Virus record (IMG/VR): IMGVR_UViG_3300036715_001196
Location: 1 to 64,000 of that record
Length of the DNA stretch: 64,000 nt
Direction: 5' to 3' (one strand)
DNA from: a virus
Lineage: Duplodnaviria > Heunggongvirae > Uroviricota > Caudoviricetes
The notes under the pieces are model-generated. The model did not search any database and was not told where the DNA came from. It was given only the letters and a program-made list of their open reading frames with translations. Below are positions 14,043-64,000 of the stretch, in pieces; the first letter of the stretch is position 1, and every line of letters starts with the position of its first letter. A program made the translations under genes and the position numbers.

Positions 14043-14390
14043 ATGACTACTAAATTTGAGTTTGGCTATATCGGCTGGTGCAAAGAAGGCAGCCATGATA
14101 AAATTTGGGGTTATTTTTATCGACCAAGCCCGGAGTATGAAGCAGCGAAAAACACACCGGTTTGGTCTATACCAGTGCGTAATGTATGCGTGTTCTGGGG
14201 AAGGCGCGGCAAAGCCTTACAATTTAAAGCTAATACAACAGGATACGACTTATATAGATTAGAAGAATCGAAGTCCAAAAAAGGTTATACAGAAATTAAT
14301 GAAAAAATCCTTACTGAAATTTGGACCACATTTGCAAGTGAGGCTGAGTTAAAACTCTCGTTTGAAGTTTTGGCAGGGAATGTAAAGTAG
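14043..14390 (+). CDS. WGR-domain protein
   Basis: HDKIWGYFY ... VCVFWGRRGKALQFK matches the W-G-R signature of the WGR domain (PARP/MolR-associated). ATG 1 nt after the upstream stop. Confidence 0.5.
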   Translation: MTTKFEFGYIGWCKEGSHDKIWGYFYRPSPEYEAAKNTPVWSIPVRNVCVFWGRRGKALQFKANTTGYDLYRLEESKSKKGYTEINEKILTEIWTTFASEAELKLSFEVLAGNVK

Positions 14391-14732
14391 TTAAGCCATC
14401 AATGAATAATACACAAACCTATGTAAAAATGAATATAGCCATCAAACGTTTTGACAACTGGTTAAAAATAAACAGAGACATTAATGCATGACATAAAGAA
14501 AATCAACTAAGTTTTCAAATTATGATGCAGGCAATGGACAATTTATTGTATTTCTTAACGTAATTTATACAAAGCCCGGCTCAATAAAGGTATGATAGTT
14601 GAAGTATGTACCTGGGCTGCAGACAATAACATTAACTTCTATCATATGTGGTCATGGAAAGATATAGTTATAGTGTTATTTTTTATAATAGCGAAGATGT
14701 ACTGCTATTTAAATTAAGATTTAACGGATACT

Positions 14733-34579: not shown

Positions 34580-35028
34580 AAGTCTATATAGCATTATTAA
34601 AAATAGATGTAAAGAAGGTTATTGCTGTTATATTAACTAGTAATTATAAATATAATGGCCAACTTGTATCATGCACTAAAACATATTGATCAGTTGCCAC
34701 CGCGGCAAGGTGGCAGCTAAAGACCATTGCAGCTGGTAGATCCCATAAGAAATATACAGGGCCGTTACACTTCGTGAAAATACAGAAAAAATTATACAGA
34801 AGATCTTTACCAATATTTAAGAAACTTTTCGAAGATAAATAAAATATATAGAAAATTGACAAACATAATACATTTATGTACAATAACAAGTAACAACACT
34901 AAGGAATACAATGAAAGAGCTTTTAACAATACTCTATTACGAATTTTATTGCAATTTTGTATTTTCTTTGTTATCTCCTCAATACATACAGGTATATTAT
35001 CCTGTATTACTTAGTTAACTAACATCTC

Positions 35029-35104
35029 CGGCGTTCGTATAGTGGATAATACAGCGTTCTTCTAAAGCGTGAACAGGGATTCGATTTCTCTACGCCGGAC
35101 CACA
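35029..35104 (+). pseudogene. tRNA-like remnant (intact acceptor and D arms, candidate UCU anticodon, broken T arm)
   Basis: CCGGCGT...ACGCCGG-A-CCA: a perfect 7-bp acceptor stem with 3' ACCA. D arm GTAT-AGTGGATA-ATAC. Anticodon loop CTTCTAA. No canonical T stem can be formed. Followed directly by a terminator. Confidence 0.25.
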
Positions 35105-35946: not shown

Positions 35947-36034
35947 GGGTCAGACGCACTATTGGAGGGATGCCCTGAACTCATAATTCAGTCGCGAAAG
36001 CGCCATGTCGGTTCGAACCCGACCTGACCTACCA
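35947..36034 (+). tRNA. tRNA, anticodon CAU (Met/Ile2-type) with an unusually long variable arm, encoded CCA
   Basis: Acceptor GGGTCAG/CTGACCT (G1-U72). D arm GCA-CTATTGGAGGGA-TGC. Anticodon arm CTGAA-CTCATAA-TTCAG (U33, CAU, A37). Extra arm CGCG-AAA-GCGC. T arm GTCGG-TTCGAAC-CCGAC. Discriminator A + CCA. 88 nt. Confidence 0.6.
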
Positions 36035-57913: not shown

Positions 57914-58162
57914 ATGAGTATATTTGATGTAATTAAGTATCCAATAAGTATTCCTCCGAAGCGTGAAGAACTCGAAGCACTCCCTGTTGATTTATTAGTA
58001 GAATGGATGTCAGCTGCTGGTTTCGCCGATCCCGACTATAGTGACCCTTCTTTATTAATATCTAGAGCATTAGCATATTATAACTGTTGGGTTAATTCAA
58101 AAAATACTATTCCTATAAATGGACCTATGTTATTAAGAAAAATGATACGAGACCTACCATGA
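57914..58162 (+). CDS. SLFD-family small protein, copy 9
   Basis: MSIFDVIKYPISIPPKREELEALP...LLRKMIRDLP. Confidence 0.55.
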   Translation: MSIFDVIKYPISIPPKREELEALPVDLLVEWMSAAGFADPDYSDPSLLISRALAYYNCWVNSKNTIPINGPMLLRKMIRDLP

Positions 58163-58383
58163 GTATCTTTGATGTAATTAAGTATCCAATAAGTGAACCA
58201 CCTACTAAGGAAGAGCTAGAAGCATTACCCGATGATTTATACAACTACTGGTGTGTGCGCGAATTCGGGTATTCCTATAGCAGAAATACTATCCATCGTT
58301 ATCTTTCTGGCTATAATCCTTCGAATGTTATTATGATAAAACAGTTAAGACAAATGATTGAGGATTACGATGAGCCTATTTGA
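58159..58383 (+). CDS. SLFD-family small protein, copy 10
   Basis: MSIFDVIKYPISEPPTKEELEALP...LRQMIEDYDEPI. Confidence 0.55.
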   Translation: MSIFDVIKYPISEPPTKEELEALPDDLYNYWCVREFGYSYSRNTIHRYLSGYNPSNVIMIKQLRQMIEDYDEPI

Positions 58384-58612
58384 TGTTATTAGGTATCCAA
58401 TTAGTGATCTTCCTACAATAAGTGAATTAGCTGCACTCCCTGAAGAAGTTTATAATATGCTACGCAAACACGATAATTATGTAAGTGTATTAAGTACATC
58501 AAGTACATCAAGTATCAAATATTTTCTTACTACACAATATGCTAGTAAACATATGCCTATCCACCAACTTAATACTCTAACAACCCTAAGAGAAGTTATA
58601 TACAATCTATAA
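58370..58612 (+). CDS. SLFD-family small protein, copy 11 (divergent C-term)
   Basis: MSLFDVIRYPISDLPTISELAALP... Confidence 0.5.
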   Translation: MSLFDVIRYPISDLPTISELAALPEEVYNMLRKHDNYVSVLSTSSTSSIKYFLTTQYASKHMPIHQLNTLTTLREVIYNL

Positions 58613-59160: not shown

Positions 59161-59215
59161 TGTGCGTCTTTGGGTGCAGGTGCGCGAGCGCGCGTGCGTG
59201 TGCGTGCGTGCCCAC
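59161..59215. repeat. GC-rich alternating purine-pyrimidine (Z-DNA-prone) island
   Basis: GCGCGCGTGCGTGTGCGTGCGTGC: 24 nt of perfect RY alternation (59188-59211) inside a local GC spike in AT-rich DNA. Confidence 0.7.
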
Positions 59216-59227
59216 AGAAGACCACAG

Positions 59228-60290
59228 TAGAGAATCGATTGAAAAAATCACAGCAGAGAATCAATGAGAAAAGACCAAGACTTCCTATCGAAAAGACCTT
59301 GAGAAGACATTGAGTGCATTTTAGGGTCTTCAAACGCAATTCTCGATGTTCTACACCAATGCGATCGCCCACAGCAGCGAGATTTTCACAGTAGAGAATC
59401 AATGATCGAACTTCAATCTTGAAAATCCACAGTAGAGAATCAATGATTCGAAGATTTTCACAGTAGAGAATCAATGAGAAGACAATTACTGAGCACCTGT
59501 GATTCAATTTGATTCGATGTGATTCGATGTGATTCGACTGCGAATTGCATTTAAACGCCACTGCACGCCACTGTACCTAAGTAAATGAAATTCTAAGCAG
59601 CTTAGGCCTTAATAGAACATTACACTAAACAATACTCTATGTGCAATACCATGTGAAATTCTTGAAAATCCACAGTAGAGAACCAATGATTCTAAGATTT
59701 TCACAGTAGAGAACCAATGATTCTAAGATTTTCACAGTAGAGAACCAATGATTCTAAGATTTTCACAGTAGAGAATCAATGATTCGAAGATTTCCGCAGT
59801 AGAGAACCAATGATTGAAGCTCATTCTTGAAAATCCACAGTGTGCATTTCGATGATTCTTGAAAATCCACAGTGTACATTTCGATGATCGAAGCTCATTC
59901 TTGAAAATCCACAGTGTGCATTTCGATGATTCTTGAAAATCCACAGTAGAGAACCAATGATCGAAGCTCATTCTTGAAAATCCACAGTGTGCATTTCGAT
60001 GATTCTAAGATTTTCACAGTAGAGAATCAATGATTCTTGAAAATCCACAGTGTGCATTTCGATGATTCTTGAAAATCCACAGTGTACATTTCGATGATCG
60101 AAGCTCATTCTTGAAAATCCACAGTGTACATTTCGATGATTCTAAGATTTTCACAGTAGAGAATCAATGATTCTTGAAAATCCACAGTGTACATTTCGAT
60201 GATCGAAGCTCATTCTTGAAAATCCACAGTAGAGAATCAATGATTCTTGAAAATCCACAGTGTACATTTCGATGATCGAAACTCATTGTA
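59228..60290. repeat. modular iteron-like direct-repeat array (about 24 units of about 31 or 42 bp)
   Basis: Units built combinatorially: [CTTGAAAATCCACAG | CTAAGATTTTCACAG] + [TAGAGAA(C/T)CAATGAT | TGT(A/G)CATTTCGATGAT] + [T | CGAAGCTCATT]. The TGAAAATC and GATTTTCA half-sites are reverse complements. No unique spacers. Confidence 0.8.
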
Positions 60291-60427
60291 GGGTTTCATT
60301 ATTGAAATGTGTTGCTTTTATGTTAATGGGTTTCATTATTGAAATGTGTTGCTATTGTGTATAGCTATTATGTTAATGGTTTTCATTGTTGAAATGTGTT
60401 GCTATTGTGTATAGCTATTATGTTAAT
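60291..60427. repeat. about 50-bp direct repeat (2 full copies + 1 short copy)
   Basis: GG(G/T)TTTCATT(A/G)TTGAAATGTGTTGCTATTGTGTATAGCTATTATGTTAAT. Confidence 0.8.
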
Positions 60428-60476
60428 GGTTCTCGGAGTGCGAGGTTTCTATTAAGGTATCGAATTTAACTCTCGC

Positions 60477-60580
60477 GTGAGGTTAGAGCCTCGGTGGTTG
60501 ATTTGTCTACTGTGGTTTTTTACTGTGAGGTTAGAGCCTCGGTGGTTGATTTGTCTACTGTGGTTTTTTACTGTGAGGTG
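60477..60580. repeat. 48-bp direct repeat (2 copies + partial)
   Basis: GTGAGGTTAGAGCCTCGGTGGTTGATTTGTCTACTGTGGTTTTTTACT repeated twice, then GTGAGGTG. Confidence 0.85.
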
Positions 60581-60714
60581 CATTGATGCTCTGATACATT
60601 TGTTTTTGAGTACTTGGTGTAAAAGGATTCGGGTATTTGTTTGATCTTCACATAGTCATTGACAAAGAGTGGGATAACAGGTACACTGTAGGTAAGATAA
60701 CAAAGGAGTTTAAT

Positions 60715-61047
60715 ATGACAATTTCTCGTAAAGAATATGCAGAAGCGTTCAAAGCTGCTAAGAAGTATCTATCGTATGGTCAGCTGTATAATATCATTGA
60801 TTCTGATGATGCTAAAACAACATGTATCTGTTGGGCATTAGACGATAGTATTAGAGAGCATAATACTCCAAGGCATGTTGTTAGGGCAGCACAGGCACTT
60901 ATTAATGAACGCTTAGGTGGGCATCATAGTGTTTGTGACTACTTATCTTGTGGTCTAGGTATTTCACATACATCACTAACACTTAAAGCAGTACAAACAT
61001 TTCGACATGAATGGCTTGATCAGCTCATTAGTGAATTCTCGAAATGA
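60715..61047 (+). CDS. family D protein (variable body, conserved C-term TFRHEWLDQLISEFSK), module copy 1
   Basis: ATG after AAAGGAGTTTAAT. TTGACA-N17-TACACT upstream. Stop overlaps the next start (ATGA). Confidence 0.5.
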   Translation: MTISRKEYAEAFKAAKKYLSYGQLYNIIDSDDAKTTCICWALDDSIREHNTPRHVVRAAQALINERLGGHHSVCDYLSCGLGISHTSLTLKAVQTFRHEWLDQLISEFSK

Positions 61048-61424
61048 TTCTCCCTAATGGTCTGCGTAATCGAGAACACATTATTAGACTACTCGATCAT
61101 GCTAAAGCAAACCCCGAAGCTTGGTCAGCGATACGTAATGAACCCCCGACTATGTTGTTTAGTAGATTGCGGAGTGGGATCGGAATAACATTATCTCAAC
61201 TAATAAGCCGTATAGGTCAAGAATTGACAGGCATCAATGTAGTCCCAGATTGTATATTAGCACTTGTCTTATATGATTGTGCATATATGCTTGATTCACA
61301 TCCGGGTGAGCTTGAAATACTTGCTAAGTTCGGTAATGATGAAGCTTATTTGATGCTTAATGCATGTAGATTACTTCATGGTCTAGAACTTGCGTTTCAA
61401 TGTAGTGTTTCAGACAATGATTGA
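61044..61424 (+). CDS. divergent family A member 16, module copy 1
   Basis: MILPNGLRNREHIIRLLDHAKANPEAW parallels [21 protein letters not shown]-term [39 protein letters not shown]. Stop inside the next -35. Confidence 0.6.
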   Translation: MILPNGLRNREHIIRLLDHAKANPEAWSAIRNEPPTMLFSRLRSGIGITLSQLISRIGQELTGINVVPDCILALVLYDCAYMLDSHPGELEILAKFGNDEAYLMLNACRLLHGLELAFQCSVSDND

Positions 61425-61449
61425 CAAATGATTCCGTTTGTCATATAAT
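61421..61449 (+). promoter_or_regulatory. family-A-type promoter cassette upstream of a family D gene
   Basis: TTGACAAATGATTCCGTTTGTCATATAAT + ACTACACATTAAACAAACAGGAGTAGAAAATG. Confidence 0.65.
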
Positions 61450-61479
61450 TACTACACATTAAACAAACAGGAGTAGAAA

Positions 61480-61821
61480 ATGTCTTATACTAAACAAAAC
61501 CGCAAAACTATTCACTCACAGTTGGTTGCTGCAAAGAAACATTTGTGGACTGGTGTTGGTAAAAAGTATCTAACTGAATATATTTGTATAGCTGTAATTA
61601 AAGGGTTGGTCGCATCGCGTAGTGATCTGAACTGGAGCATAACTACGGATATGATTGAAAGTCGATTAAGAGAGCGCACCGGCAAATGTATTGATCTCAG
61701 AACTGTGAGGGACTGGCTCATTGAGTATGCTAAAATCCCAGTAGCTGACATAACAAATGAATCATTGCAAACATATCGACATGAATGGCTTGATCAGCTC
61801 ATTAGTGAATTCTCGGAATGA
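61480..61821 (+). CDS. family D protein, module copy 2
   Basis: MSYTKQNRKTIHSQLVAAKKHLW... ends LQTYRHEWLDQLISEFSE. Confidence 0.55.
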   Translation: MSYTKQNRKTIHSQLVAAKKHLWTGVGKKYLTEYICIAVIKGLVASRSDLNWSITTDMIESRLRERTGKCIDLRTVRDWLIEYAKIPVADITNESLQTYRHEWLDQLISEFSE

Positions 61822-61979
61822 TTCTCCCTAATGATTTGCGTAATGAACCCTCAACTATGTTGTTTAGTAGATTGTGGAGTGAGCTTGAAATACTTGCTAA
61901 GTTAGGTAATCTATATGCTTGCTTGTTATACAATGCATGTAAGGTAATTCACGGTATTCAACTAGAGTTTGACAAATGA
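61818..61979 (+). pseudogene. internally deleted remnant of a family-A gene (module copy 2)
   Basis: MILPNDLRNEPSTMLFSRLWSELEILAKLGNLYACLLYNACKVIHGIQLEFDK: N-terminus and C-terminus of copy 1 are fused, with two internal deletions. Stop lies inside the next -35. Confidence 0.55.
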
Positions 61980-61997
61980 TTCCATTTGTCATATAAT
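61969..61997 (+). promoter_or_regulatory. family-A-type promoter cassette
   Basis: TTGACAAATGATTCCATTTGTCATATAAT + ACTACACATTAAACAAACAGGAGTTGGTATG. Confidence 0.65.
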
Positions 61998-62026
61998 TAC
62001 TACACATTAAACAAACAGGAGTTGGT

Positions 62027-62368
62027 ATGTCTTATACTAAACAAAACCGCAAAACTATTCACTCACAGTTGGTTGCTGCAAAGAAACATTTGTGGGCTGG
62101 TGTTGGTAAAAGGTATCTAACTAGATATATTTGCGTGGCTGTAGTTGACGGGGTGCTTGCATCGCGTAGTGATCTGGACTGGAGCATGACTACGGGTATG
62201 ATTGAAAGTCGGTTAGGAAAGTGCATCGATGGACATATTAGTGCCAGAACTGTAAGAGGATGGCTCATTGAGTATGCTAAAATCCCAGTAGCTGACATAA
62301 CAGATGAATCATTGCAAACATTTCGACATGAATGGCTTGATGAATTGATTAAGGAGTTTTCAAAGTGA
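62027..62368 (+). CDS. family D protein, module copy 3
   Basis: Near-identical N-terminus to 61480. Ends LQTFRHEWLDELIKEFSK. Confidence 0.55.
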   Translation: MSYTKQNRKTIHSQLVAAKKHLWAGVGKRYLTRYICVAVVDGVLASRSDLDWSMTTGMIESRLGKCIDGHISARTVRGWLIEYAKIPVADITDESLQTFRHEWLDELIKEFSK

Positions 62369-62778
62369 CTATAGTAGTACCTAAATATGTTTGCAACCGT
62401 GAACATATCTTAAGGCTCATTGAGCATTCTCGCAAGAACCCATTGTTGTGGAAACAGCTATCAGACGAGCGCAGTCATACTCACTTCTTTGATGCTAGAG
62501 ATAAAACTATTCTTAGATACGAAGATCAACTATCTTGGGATGGAAAAATTCTACTAGACATAAGCAATATTATTACAACTAATGCATATACTGTTTTGGA
62601 TTGTATAGTATGCTTATTTGCATATGATGATTGTGCATATATGCTTGATTCACATCCGGGTGAGCTTGAAATACTTGCTAAGTTTGATAATCCATATGCT
62701 TGCTTGTTATACAATGCATGTAGAATACTTCATGGTCTAGAACCTATGTTTCAATGTAGTGTTTCAGACAATGATTGA
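62365..62778 (+). CDS. divergent family A member 17, module copy 3
   Basis: C-term [55 protein letters not shown]. Confidence 0.6.
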   Translation: MTIVVPKYVCNREHILRLIEHSRKNPLLWKQLSDERSHTHFFDARDKTILRYEDQLSWDGKILLDISNIITTNAYTVLDCIVCLFAYDDCAYMLDSHPGELEILAKFDNPYACLLYNACRILHGLEPMFQCSVSDND

Positions 62779-62803
62779 CATGTGATTCCATTTGTCGTAT
62801 AAT
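62775..62803 (+). promoter_or_regulatory. family-A-type promoter cassette variant
   Basis: TTGACATGTGATTCCATTTGTCGTATAAT + ACTACATACACAAACAAAACAGGAGTTGGATATG. Confidence 0.6.
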
Positions 62804-62829
62804 TACTACATACACAAACAAAACAGGAG

Positions 62830-63252
62830 TTGGATATGAGTACTTCCTCAACAATCGGTTACGCAGATAAGAGTGGTAATATCTTTTCAATACGCTGTAA
62901 CTGGGGTGGAAATATCTATGAAGCTAGTAAGTTGCTTAATACTCACTACACCCAACGTGATAAGGTCGTACAATTAGTTTCATTGGGTAACTTATGTGTA
63001 CTCAAAGCTCGTATAGAGGCGTACAACCCTACAAAGCATAGCTATACTACACCCGAGCAAGGGGTTTGCGTGTTCTATGGGCGTGATAGAGGTGAACCAT
63101 GCCATGAAACAAATATGCATCGTAATGTTGAAACTTTTCTTGAAGACTCCCCAGATGATACATACACGTTCTTATTCGATAGCGGGCACTGGTATGTATC
63201 AGACGGTGGTGCTTTTGTATTGTTGGCTGAATTACTTTTAACATACAACTAA
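62830..63252 (+). CDS. hypothetical protein
   Basis: 140-aa ORF driven by the cassette promoter. Confidence 0.45.
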   Translation: MDMSTSSTIGYADKSGNIFSIRCNWGGNIYEASKLLNTHYTQRDKVVQLVSLGNLCVLKARIEAYNPTKHSYTTPEQGVCVFYGRDRGEPCHETNMHRNVETFLEDSPDDTYTFLFDSGHWYVSDGGAFVLLAELLLTYN

Positions 63253-63253
63253 T

Positions 63254-63652
63254 ATGGATAAGATCAAAGACATTGCGAAAGCTACTCGCATTTGGGCTGA
63301 AGACTATGCTCATACACATAATATGGCAGCAGACTTATGCGGTATGTGTGCTATAGCCTCGGCAGAACTCTTTACTAATTTGATTTTTGCAGGATTTAAG
63401 CCCGAGATAAGAATTTCAAACAGTTTTAGTGGCAATCATGTTTACTGTGTGGTAGATGATCATGTTGTTGATGTTACTGCAACACAATTTCATCCTTTTG
63501 AAGAAGAAACAGTTGTTATACTTCATGAGTGTGAAGCTGCTGCATATAATTTCTATGTTGATGATATTCACTATATTGAAAGTATAAAGGCACTCGTTAA
63601 ATATCAAAAGAAGTATGATTGGCCGAAGAAACAACGGGTATCTATTGCTTGA
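63254..63652 (+). CDS. hypothetical protein
   Basis: 132-aa ORF, 1 nt after the upstream stop. Confidence 0.45.
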   Translation: MDKIKDIAKATRIWAEDYAHTHNMAADLCGMCAIASAELFTNLIFAGFKPEIRISNSFSGNHVYCVVDDHVVDVTATQFHPFEEETVVILHECEAAAYNFYVDDIHYIESIKALVKYQKKYDWPKKQRVSIA

Positions 63653-63707: not shown

Positions 63708-64000
63708 ATGTCTAATGCATGGGATCACTTACCAAATGCGAAACACATTGATGCAATACTTGCATCAGTTAAAGCACACCCAAAAGAATGGGGTGCGGCG
63801 CGGGCTGCGGCGCGGATTGCGGTAAGTGATGCGGCATGGGGTGCAGCATGGGGTGCAGCACGAGGTGCAGCATGGGGTGCAGCACGGGGTGCATCGTGGG
63901 ATGCGGCAAGGGGTGCGGAATGGGATGCGGCAAGTAGTGCGGCATATTATACAGCAAAGGGCGCAGCGGGGGATGCAATCGTCGCCCTTATTGTATATGA
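63708..64000 (+). CDS. HEAT-like repeat protein, family A member 18 (3' end beyond the window)
   Basis: [28 protein letters not shown] followed by AARAAA/AAWGAA repeats. Truncated by the window edge. Confidence 0.7.
   Translation, partial: MSNAWDHLPNAKHIDAILASVKAHPKEWGAARAAARIAVSDAAWGAAWGAARGAAWGAARGASWDAARGAEWDAASSAAYYTAKGAAGDAIVALIVY

Follow-up and report, generated by a model that had tools for sequence, protein, structure and literature searches.

We analysed 64,000 nucleotides (nt) of viral DNA, positions 1 to 64,000 of IMG/VR record IMGVR_UViG_3300036715_001196 (this whole stretch is called the window below). The window comes from an uncultured large phage. Within 60600-62900, six plus-strand open reading frames (ORFs) follow each other head to tail in the order D1-A1-D2-A2-D3-A3, where D is a small gene of a family that we call D and A is a divergent gene of a second family. 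They make up three D/A units, numbered 1 to 3. D1 (60715-61047, 110 amino acids, aa) is a family-D gene of type I, with an AAGGAG Shine-Dalgarno sequence 6 nt 5' of its ATG, and A1 (61044-61424, 126 aa) is a repeat-less member of a subfamily of A that we call A-sub. D2 (61480-61821, 113 aa) is a hybrid whose D3-like part runs up to 61794 and whose last 27 nt are D1-like, and A2 (61818-61979) is a 53-aa remnant of an A1-like gene. D3 (62027-62368, 113 aa) is a family-D gene of type II, whose final codons hold an AAGGAG Shine-Dalgarno sequence for A3 (62365-62778, 137 aa), again an A-sub gene. Each A start overlaps the preceding D stop by 4 nt, as ATGA in units 1 and 2 and as GTGA, with a GTG start, in unit 3. 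An earlier note on this DNA had described three successive units with an ATGA overlap in each; the succession and the overlaps stand, the ATGA form only in the first two units. The paralogy is well beyond chance in tblastn searches within the window (E 2e-58 for D2/D3 and 2e-35 for A1/A3). The same gene order is found in L001 and L002, contigs assembled independently from other samples, and this concordance of three independent contigs rules out an assembly artefact. Two antisense ORFs (61512-61751 and 62059-62406) were discarded as shadows of the conserved plus-strand genes.

Units 2 and 3 are each preceded by a promoter cassette. Cassette 2 (61421-61479, plus strand) consists of a perfect TTGACA-17-TATAAT, the leader TACTACACATTAAACAAACAGGAG and a Shine-Dalgarno sequence, with a 9-base-pair hairpin between -35 and -10 (-9.6 kcal/mol, z -2.9). 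Cassette 3 (61969-62026, plus strand) is nearly identical (hairpin -10.6 kcal/mol, z -4.0), and these two units alone have in common the sequence TTGACAAATGATTCC(G/A)TTTGTCATATAAT. A fourth cassette (62775-62838, plus strand), with a perfect consensus and a degraded hairpin, precedes an unrelated phrog_1987 gene (62830-63252). The promoters at 61421, 61969 and 62775 match the sigma-70 consensus at 12/12 positions, and in each the -35 hexamer overlies the stop of the A gene before it, the stop of A1 falling within the hexamer of cassette 2. The conserved leader ends in AGGAG, 6-8 nt before ATG. Unit 1 has a different and weaker promoter-like site (60659-60687, plus strand; TTGACA-17-TACACT, 10/12 consensus matches), unlike the cassette of units 2 and 3 in sequence, and the claim that all three units have the cassette thus stands for two of them. 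The window contains 15 perfect TTGACA-N17-TATAAT promoters, all on the plus strand, against 0.05 expected. Seven of these 15 have the spacer ..AATGATTCC..TGTCA in common, upstream of genes from three different families. The excess of consensus promoters suggests that the region would be active as a set of early genes, read by the host RNA polymerase. We considered the palindrome of the cassette as an operator specific to D and rejected this, since the same cassette precedes other families (canonical A genes and the phrog_1987 gene).

Unit 2 is a chimera, unit 3-like up to a 27-nt tract and unit 1-like after it. We compared it with units 1 and 3 in sliding windows of 30 columns. Through the promoter and the first ~150 columns unit 2 is identical to unit 3 at 24-30 of the 30 columns, and farther along the D body at 16-30; its identity to unit 3 is above that to unit 1 throughout the promoter and the D body. 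The relation switches exactly after CGACATGAATGGCTTGAT, where unit 2 matches unit 1 at 29 of 30 columns and unit 3 at 14-20. The unit 1-like match starts past the 27-nt tract CAAACATNTCGACATGAATGGCTTGAT, which is in all three D genes, and reaches ~30 nt into A. In D1 the tract is CAAACATTTCGACATGAATGGCTTGAT (60994-61020, plus strand), encoding QTFRHEWLD; it is nearly identical in D2 (61768-61794) and D3 (62315-62341), encodes QTxRHEWLD and is the putative crossover site. The 77 nt at 60994-61070 are 94.8% identical to 61768-61844. One unequal crossover is the simplest reading of the hybrid D2 and of the second copy of A1.

The divergence between copies is uneven. D1 has 36% aa identity to D2 and D3, with saturated synonymous divergence (dS), and A1 has 48% aa identity to A3 (dS about 1.1); D2 and D3 are 78% identical (tblastn), with dS 0.27, and A2 differs from A1 with dS 0.34. 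The recent triplication proposed in the earlier note is not supported as such: units 1 and 3 are paralogues that diverged long ago, unit 2 arose by recombination between them, and even the youngest comparison has a dS of about 0.3. The ratio of non-synonymous to synonymous divergence (dN/dS) is 0.37-0.43 for D2/D3, A1/A3 and D1/D3, and 0.72 for D1/D2, a saturated comparison. The intact pairs are therefore real genes under constraint.

Related metagenomic contigs suggest how the locus was assembled. The order is D(I)-ATGA-A-sub-P-D(II) in L054, D(I)-ATGA-A-sub-67 aa-D(II) in L055, and A-sub-P-D(II) in L059, where the A-sub gene is truncated. A promoter overlaps the A-sub stop codon in L054 and L055, and also in L059 after the truncated gene. 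The ancestor might thus have been D1-A1-P-D3, i.e. a D(I)-A-sub pair followed by D(II), the order shown by these three contigs. A single unequal homologous crossover between D3 and D1 in the conserved tract would then have produced the hybrid D2 and the second A1 copy. The redundant A2 would have lost 219 nt and would still be remodelled in the population by deletion and short gene-conversion tracts. Later conversion might have homogenised the 3' halves of A1 and A3, which are 85% identical.

The erosion of A2 is visible between strains. Aligned with A1, it shows gaps of 69, 132 and 18 nt (three in all, 219 nt in total), each a multiple of three; a direct repeat, CGTAAT, flanks the first. The allele of the sister contig L002 is shorter (41 aa), with an additional in-frame gap of 36 nt, and its central tract of ~30 nt is A1-like where that of the window allele is A3-like. 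The two strains differ at 15 of 108 nt in the A2 remnant, against 0-4 differences per flanking gene, which makes A2 a local polymorphism hot spot. The suggestion that A2 is a copy caught in decay is supported by the in-frame gaps and the divergent allele, except that there are three length changes relative to A1 and not two internal deletions. These patterns support ongoing erosion and conversion of A2 among strains.

Both families are large and lack characterised relatives. D1, D2 and D3 fit the profile phrog_8421 (E 9.4e-7 over positions 11-106 of 112 for D1, 8.6e-5 for D2 and 4e-4 for D3). An exhaustive HMMER search with D (E<=1e-3) found 875 clusters, almost all of them stand-alone proteins 97-125 aa long, and the related clusters have the length and the C-terminal signature of D1-D3. 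In a few database members two D sequences are fused into one protein of 207-244 aa. Tandem D-D arrays with 4-nt overlaps occur in unrelated phage contigs (L011 1176-3854, L022 3992-5087, L030 3791-4662, and L015, which is phage PhiW-14). D1-D3 carry the family signature YIC.A ... RLG ... WL ... Q.YRH.WLD.LI.EFS, and all have the four residues invariant among 234 D members (C36, R100, W103 and E110). Their C-termini, VQTFRHEWLDQLISEFSK, LQTYRHEWLDQLISEFSE and LQTFRHEWLDELIKEFSK in the three units, are strongly conserved and differ from one another, so the C-terminus described earlier as invariant is highly conserved only. Its conservation is mainly a family-wide constraint, because the Q.YRH.WLD.LI.EFS signature spans the family, and is locally sharpened by homogenisation at the DNA level.

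The AlphaFold2 model of D3 has five helices (predicted local distance difference test, pLDDT, 88.9), and a Foldseek search of BFVD with the D model gave only non-significant matches, to uncharacterised phage proteins. The PDB sequence search with the D profile gave no match. Pfam, NCBIfam and PADLOC have no family for D, including when 44 D members and 10 longer D-containing proteins were searched. Nucleotide and tblastn searches of INPHARED with D3 gave no match, and with a typical D member as tblastn query the sole match was PhiW-14 gene 174 (locus tag gp175). Scans of viral contigs with near-clade D and A-sub alignments brought nothing new; two scans of metagenome contigs and one of genome contigs gave pattern matches and no confirmed relatives. 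D is thus without a fold or sequence relative of characterised function in these sequence and structure searches. It is unrelated to A (hhalign probability 0.4%).

Family A has 18 copies in the window (4244-53257 among their ranges), more beyond its end (L001 2061-2982), and a 15-copy tandem array in the ENA contig L006 (3127-10390). At least 480 metagenomic relatives were found, none with a Pfam domain; its conserved domains gave no Pfam, PHROG or cultured-phage match, nor did the family have any in NCBIfam and PADLOC, and the INPHARED nucleotide and tblastn searches with A3 and a canonical A gave none. Canonical members have an N-terminal W.HLPNA.HID motif, variable central Ala-rich AA..AA.. 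repeats and a conserved C-terminal domain with LLL.AC. The repeats vary in length, with a 12-nt periodicity at 63828-63945. A1 and A3 have the C-terminal domain, of which A2 retains only ELEILAK.G...NAC. They lack the Ala repeats and have NREHI in place of NAKHID. Together with the genes of L054, L055 and L059 they form the distinct subfamily A-sub, whose hidden Markov model scores A3 at 208 bits and canonical members at 99 bits or less. The AlphaFold2 model of A3 is all-helical (pLDDT 80.8), and no fold relative was found for it.

We think it probable that the locus consists of early cassettes built by recombination, with a hybrid second unit, a decaying A2, and D and A-sub genes that are co-expressed without being obligate partners. 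The region would be a hyperplastic early-gene block of an uncultured large (jumbo-type) phage. Each cassette would comprise a consensus sigma-70 promoter whose -35 lies over the preceding stop codon, a leader, a Shine-Dalgarno sequence and then a bicistron, with a small basic five-helix D protein encoded first and an acidic all-helical A-sub protein encoded second, from a start 4 nt before the D stop. Host RNA polymerase might transcribe these cassettes immediately after infection. The overlap would then co-translate D and A, with A1 and A2 dependent on the coupling. The two products might be non-essential, host-directed accessory proteins, of the takeover or counter-defence type, varying fast in copy number and sequence.

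Several observations sit uneasily with this account. Every gap in the two A2 alleles keeps the reading frame, a slightly surprising pattern if the gene is dead. At its 3' end (..HGIQLEFDK) A2 is unlike A1 and resembles the short C-termini of relatives (HGIQVIID, HGIRAIVD); a simple crossover therefore needs a later A1/A3 conversion or another order of events. The divergence between D2 and D3 is patchy: the first 30 codons have 0 synonymous changes, and farther along dS is 0.5-1.0, so that more than one exchange probably lies behind it. Finally, it is from sequence that we infer function, expression timing, promoter activity and translational coupling, and neither D nor A found a fold or sequence relative of characterised function in the sequence and structure searches.

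The association between the two families raises another possibility. The adjacency of D and A-sub with its 4-nt overlap persists in the two old, diverged copies of the window and recurs in L054 and L055, and all five A-sub genes whose upstream side is known (5/5) lie behind a D gene. The proteins have opposite charges, with an isoelectric point of about 9 for D and about 5.2 for A. A1 and A2 have no Shine-Dalgarno sequence of their own and their translation would therefore depend on coupling to D. Two small overlapping genes behind a palindrome-containing promoter also recall type II toxin-antitoxin operons. All this would fit an obligate two-component unit, be it a modifier with its substrate, a toxin-antitoxin-like pair or a heterodimer, that was duplicated as a functional whole. 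Yet D is found without an adjacent A in ~35 loci, often in D-D arrays or with an unrelated gene next downstream, and this even in L055 and L059, where the genes behind the other D copies encode unrelated proteins of 64-96 aa. D lacks a neighbouring A in 22 IMG/VR loci, in L003, L011 (a D-D-D array), L012-L014 and L040, and in phage PhiW-14. A genes mostly stand without a D partner (15 of 18 in the window and 15 of 15 in L006), and 4-nt overlaps also join A genes to unrelated genes upstream of them. D2 is intact though its partner A2 decays. The same cassette precedes canonical A genes and the phrog_1987 gene, and its palindrome therefore does not belong to the module alone; there were no PADLOC, Pfam or NCBIfam matches and no DNA-binding fold. 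Given the density of A genes in the clade, the D-A-sub association is only modestly above expectation. The earlier note had taken the pairing as strict, as a two-component unit, and suggested looking for it in related genomes; its overlap does recur in two of them, but not its strictness. Co-expression of D and A-sub is likely here, whereas an obligate partnership is not supported and we consider it unlikely.

A more specific version gives D, with its invariant Cys36, Arg100, Trp103 and Glu110, the role of a dedicated partner of family-A proteins (an adaptor, a chaperone or a modifying enzyme). The D-A-sub bicistron would then be the core of an unrecognised early-infection system of a clade of jumbo phages, in which an arms race with host defences amplified family A to at least 20 copies per genome. 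The D-A-sub junction in 3-4 related phages, the opposite charges and the coupling dependence of A1 and A2 are compatible with this idea, which we hold to be a little less probable still than the obligate pair.

As doubtful as this last idea is the possibility that A2 is no remnant but a selected mini-protein, which would keep the C-terminal ELEILAKxG...NAC helices and be translated by coupling to D2. It would account for the three gaps of the window allele and the alternative gap of L002 being all in frame, and for the ATGA start and the same stop codon being kept in both alleles. Two to three in-frame gaps would nevertheless arise without selection with a chance of ~4-11%, and the in-frame pattern is therefore not compelling. 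The most conserved motif of family A has been lost from A2, its dN/dS relative to A1 and A3 is 0.6, and no other stretch nearby comes close to it in polymorphism (15/108 nt and an indel between strains otherwise ~99% identical). Less probable than any of these is that one ancestral unit was simply triplicated in tandem and that its copies then diverged independently, without recombination: this fits the same gene order in all three units and the common cassettes of units 2 and 3, but not the sharp switch from unit 3-like to unit 1-like identity inside D2, the near-identity of unit 2 in segments to each of two units whose mutual divergence is saturated, or the different promoter of unit 1.

For the recombination-built cassettes that we favour, the closest known concept is the system of promoter-early stem-loop (PeSL) cassettes of T4-type phages, where these cassettes and the shuffling of ORFans are found in hyperplastic regions (Arbiol et al. 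2010, PMC2839356; Comeau et al. 2014, PMC4122927). The published cassettes include the upstream stop codon, a sigma-70 promoter, and a Shine-Dalgarno sequence with the start codon at the end, with the stem-loop most often between -35 and -10 (PMC2839356). Here too a strong sigma-70-type promoter lies right behind or over the stop codon of the preceding small gene, with a stem-loop between -35 and -10 and then a conserved leader with a Shine-Dalgarno sequence; at the level of sequence the combination of promoter, upstream stop, and 3' Shine-Dalgarno and start is found at 61421, 61969 and 62775. As in T4-type phages the cassette is repeated before unrelated small accessory genes, and the region evolves by recombination and by gain and loss of cassettes. 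Yet the present phage is not assigned to the T4 type, its nearest cultured relatives being PA5oct-like jumbo phages. A stable stem-loop that works as a terminator or attenuator is also part of the PeSL description; the hairpin here is weak, A/T-rich and without a U-tract, and it is not conserved in relatives: L054 has a different 5-base-pair hairpin in its place, and the orthologous cassettes of L055 and L059 lack it. Moreover, the crossover here lies in the conserved coding tract of D and not in the cassette.

Other systems are more distant. D1-D3 fit the phrog_8421 profile over nearly its full length and share with it a tendency to multiple copies per genome. Its members include Delftia phage PhiW-14 gene 174 (gp175) and uncharacterised multi-copy small proteins of Burkholderia phage BcepSauron, several of which the D fold model weakly resembles (non-significant in the BFVD Foldseek search), but these phages show no pairing with family A. 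Gene-amplification 'accordions' produce tandem arrays of paralogues of viral host-interaction genes, for example poxvirus K3L. The likeness lies in tandem duplication via unequal recombination, rapid divergence and the decay of redundant copies, whereas the copies described here are old and diverged, not transient. Type II toxin-antitoxin modules have two small genes with a 4-nt overlap and a promoter containing an inverted repeat. This candidate was ruled out: neither toxin nor DNA-binding antitoxin families are recognisable, there is no DNA-binding domain, D and A occur independently with no conserved obligate pairing, and the promoter is common to unrelated genes.

The locus is ordinary accessory-gene turnover in a hyperplastic early region of a phage, and no new mechanism is demonstrated by it. 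It offers a base-resolved example of how a conserved coding motif may be the place where recombination duplicates a cassette with its promoter, and of how the redundant gene may then erode by in-frame deletions and short conversion tracts, in which strains that occur together still differ. In addition, it draws attention to two phage families of considerable size that have neither Pfam models nor known folds, D with 875 clusters and A with at least 480 relatives and at least 18 copies in one genome. Since both lie behind consensus promoters of host type, they may serve in host takeover or counter-defence.

The window is AT-rich (GC content ~36%), with densely packed small genes, nearly all on the plus strand. 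A nucleotide search of INPHARED phages with the region gave no match. The best cultured relatives are pointed to by a DUF2201 metallopeptidase gene, with 49% aa identity to PA5oct-like Pseudomonas jumbo phages. Sister contigs encode a DNA ligase, homing endonucleases and similar genes. In one sister contig of the same sample series, L008, a protein with a Ribosomal_L12 domain (14191-14526) is encoded near DNA ligase and NUMOD3/HNH endonuclease genes. ARAGORN predicted two tRNAs in the window, among them a tRNA-Met of 88 nt (35947-36034), and the Rfam gathering search found only a tRNA at 35028-35099.

Nearer to the triplet, three small paralogues (82, 74 and 80 aa) lie in tandem at 57914-58612, all beginning with MS(I/L)FDVI(K/R)YPIS and with an ATGA overlap between the first and the second; here another family was duplicated locally. 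Immediately upstream of D1, ~1.4 kb (59200-60600) are non-coding and hold at least 13 iteron-like copies of CACAGTAGAGAA(T/C)CAATGA, as well as several copies of CCACAGTGTACATTTCGATGA. A perfect repeat of two 48-nt copies (60477-60572) includes inverted copies of the iteron core. The stretch may be an origin or a regulatory region. Downstream of the triplet, at 62830-63652, the phrog_1987 member (140 aa) is followed by a weakly YunG-like protein (132 aa), whose gene is in synteny with the related contig L055 (7192-7599).

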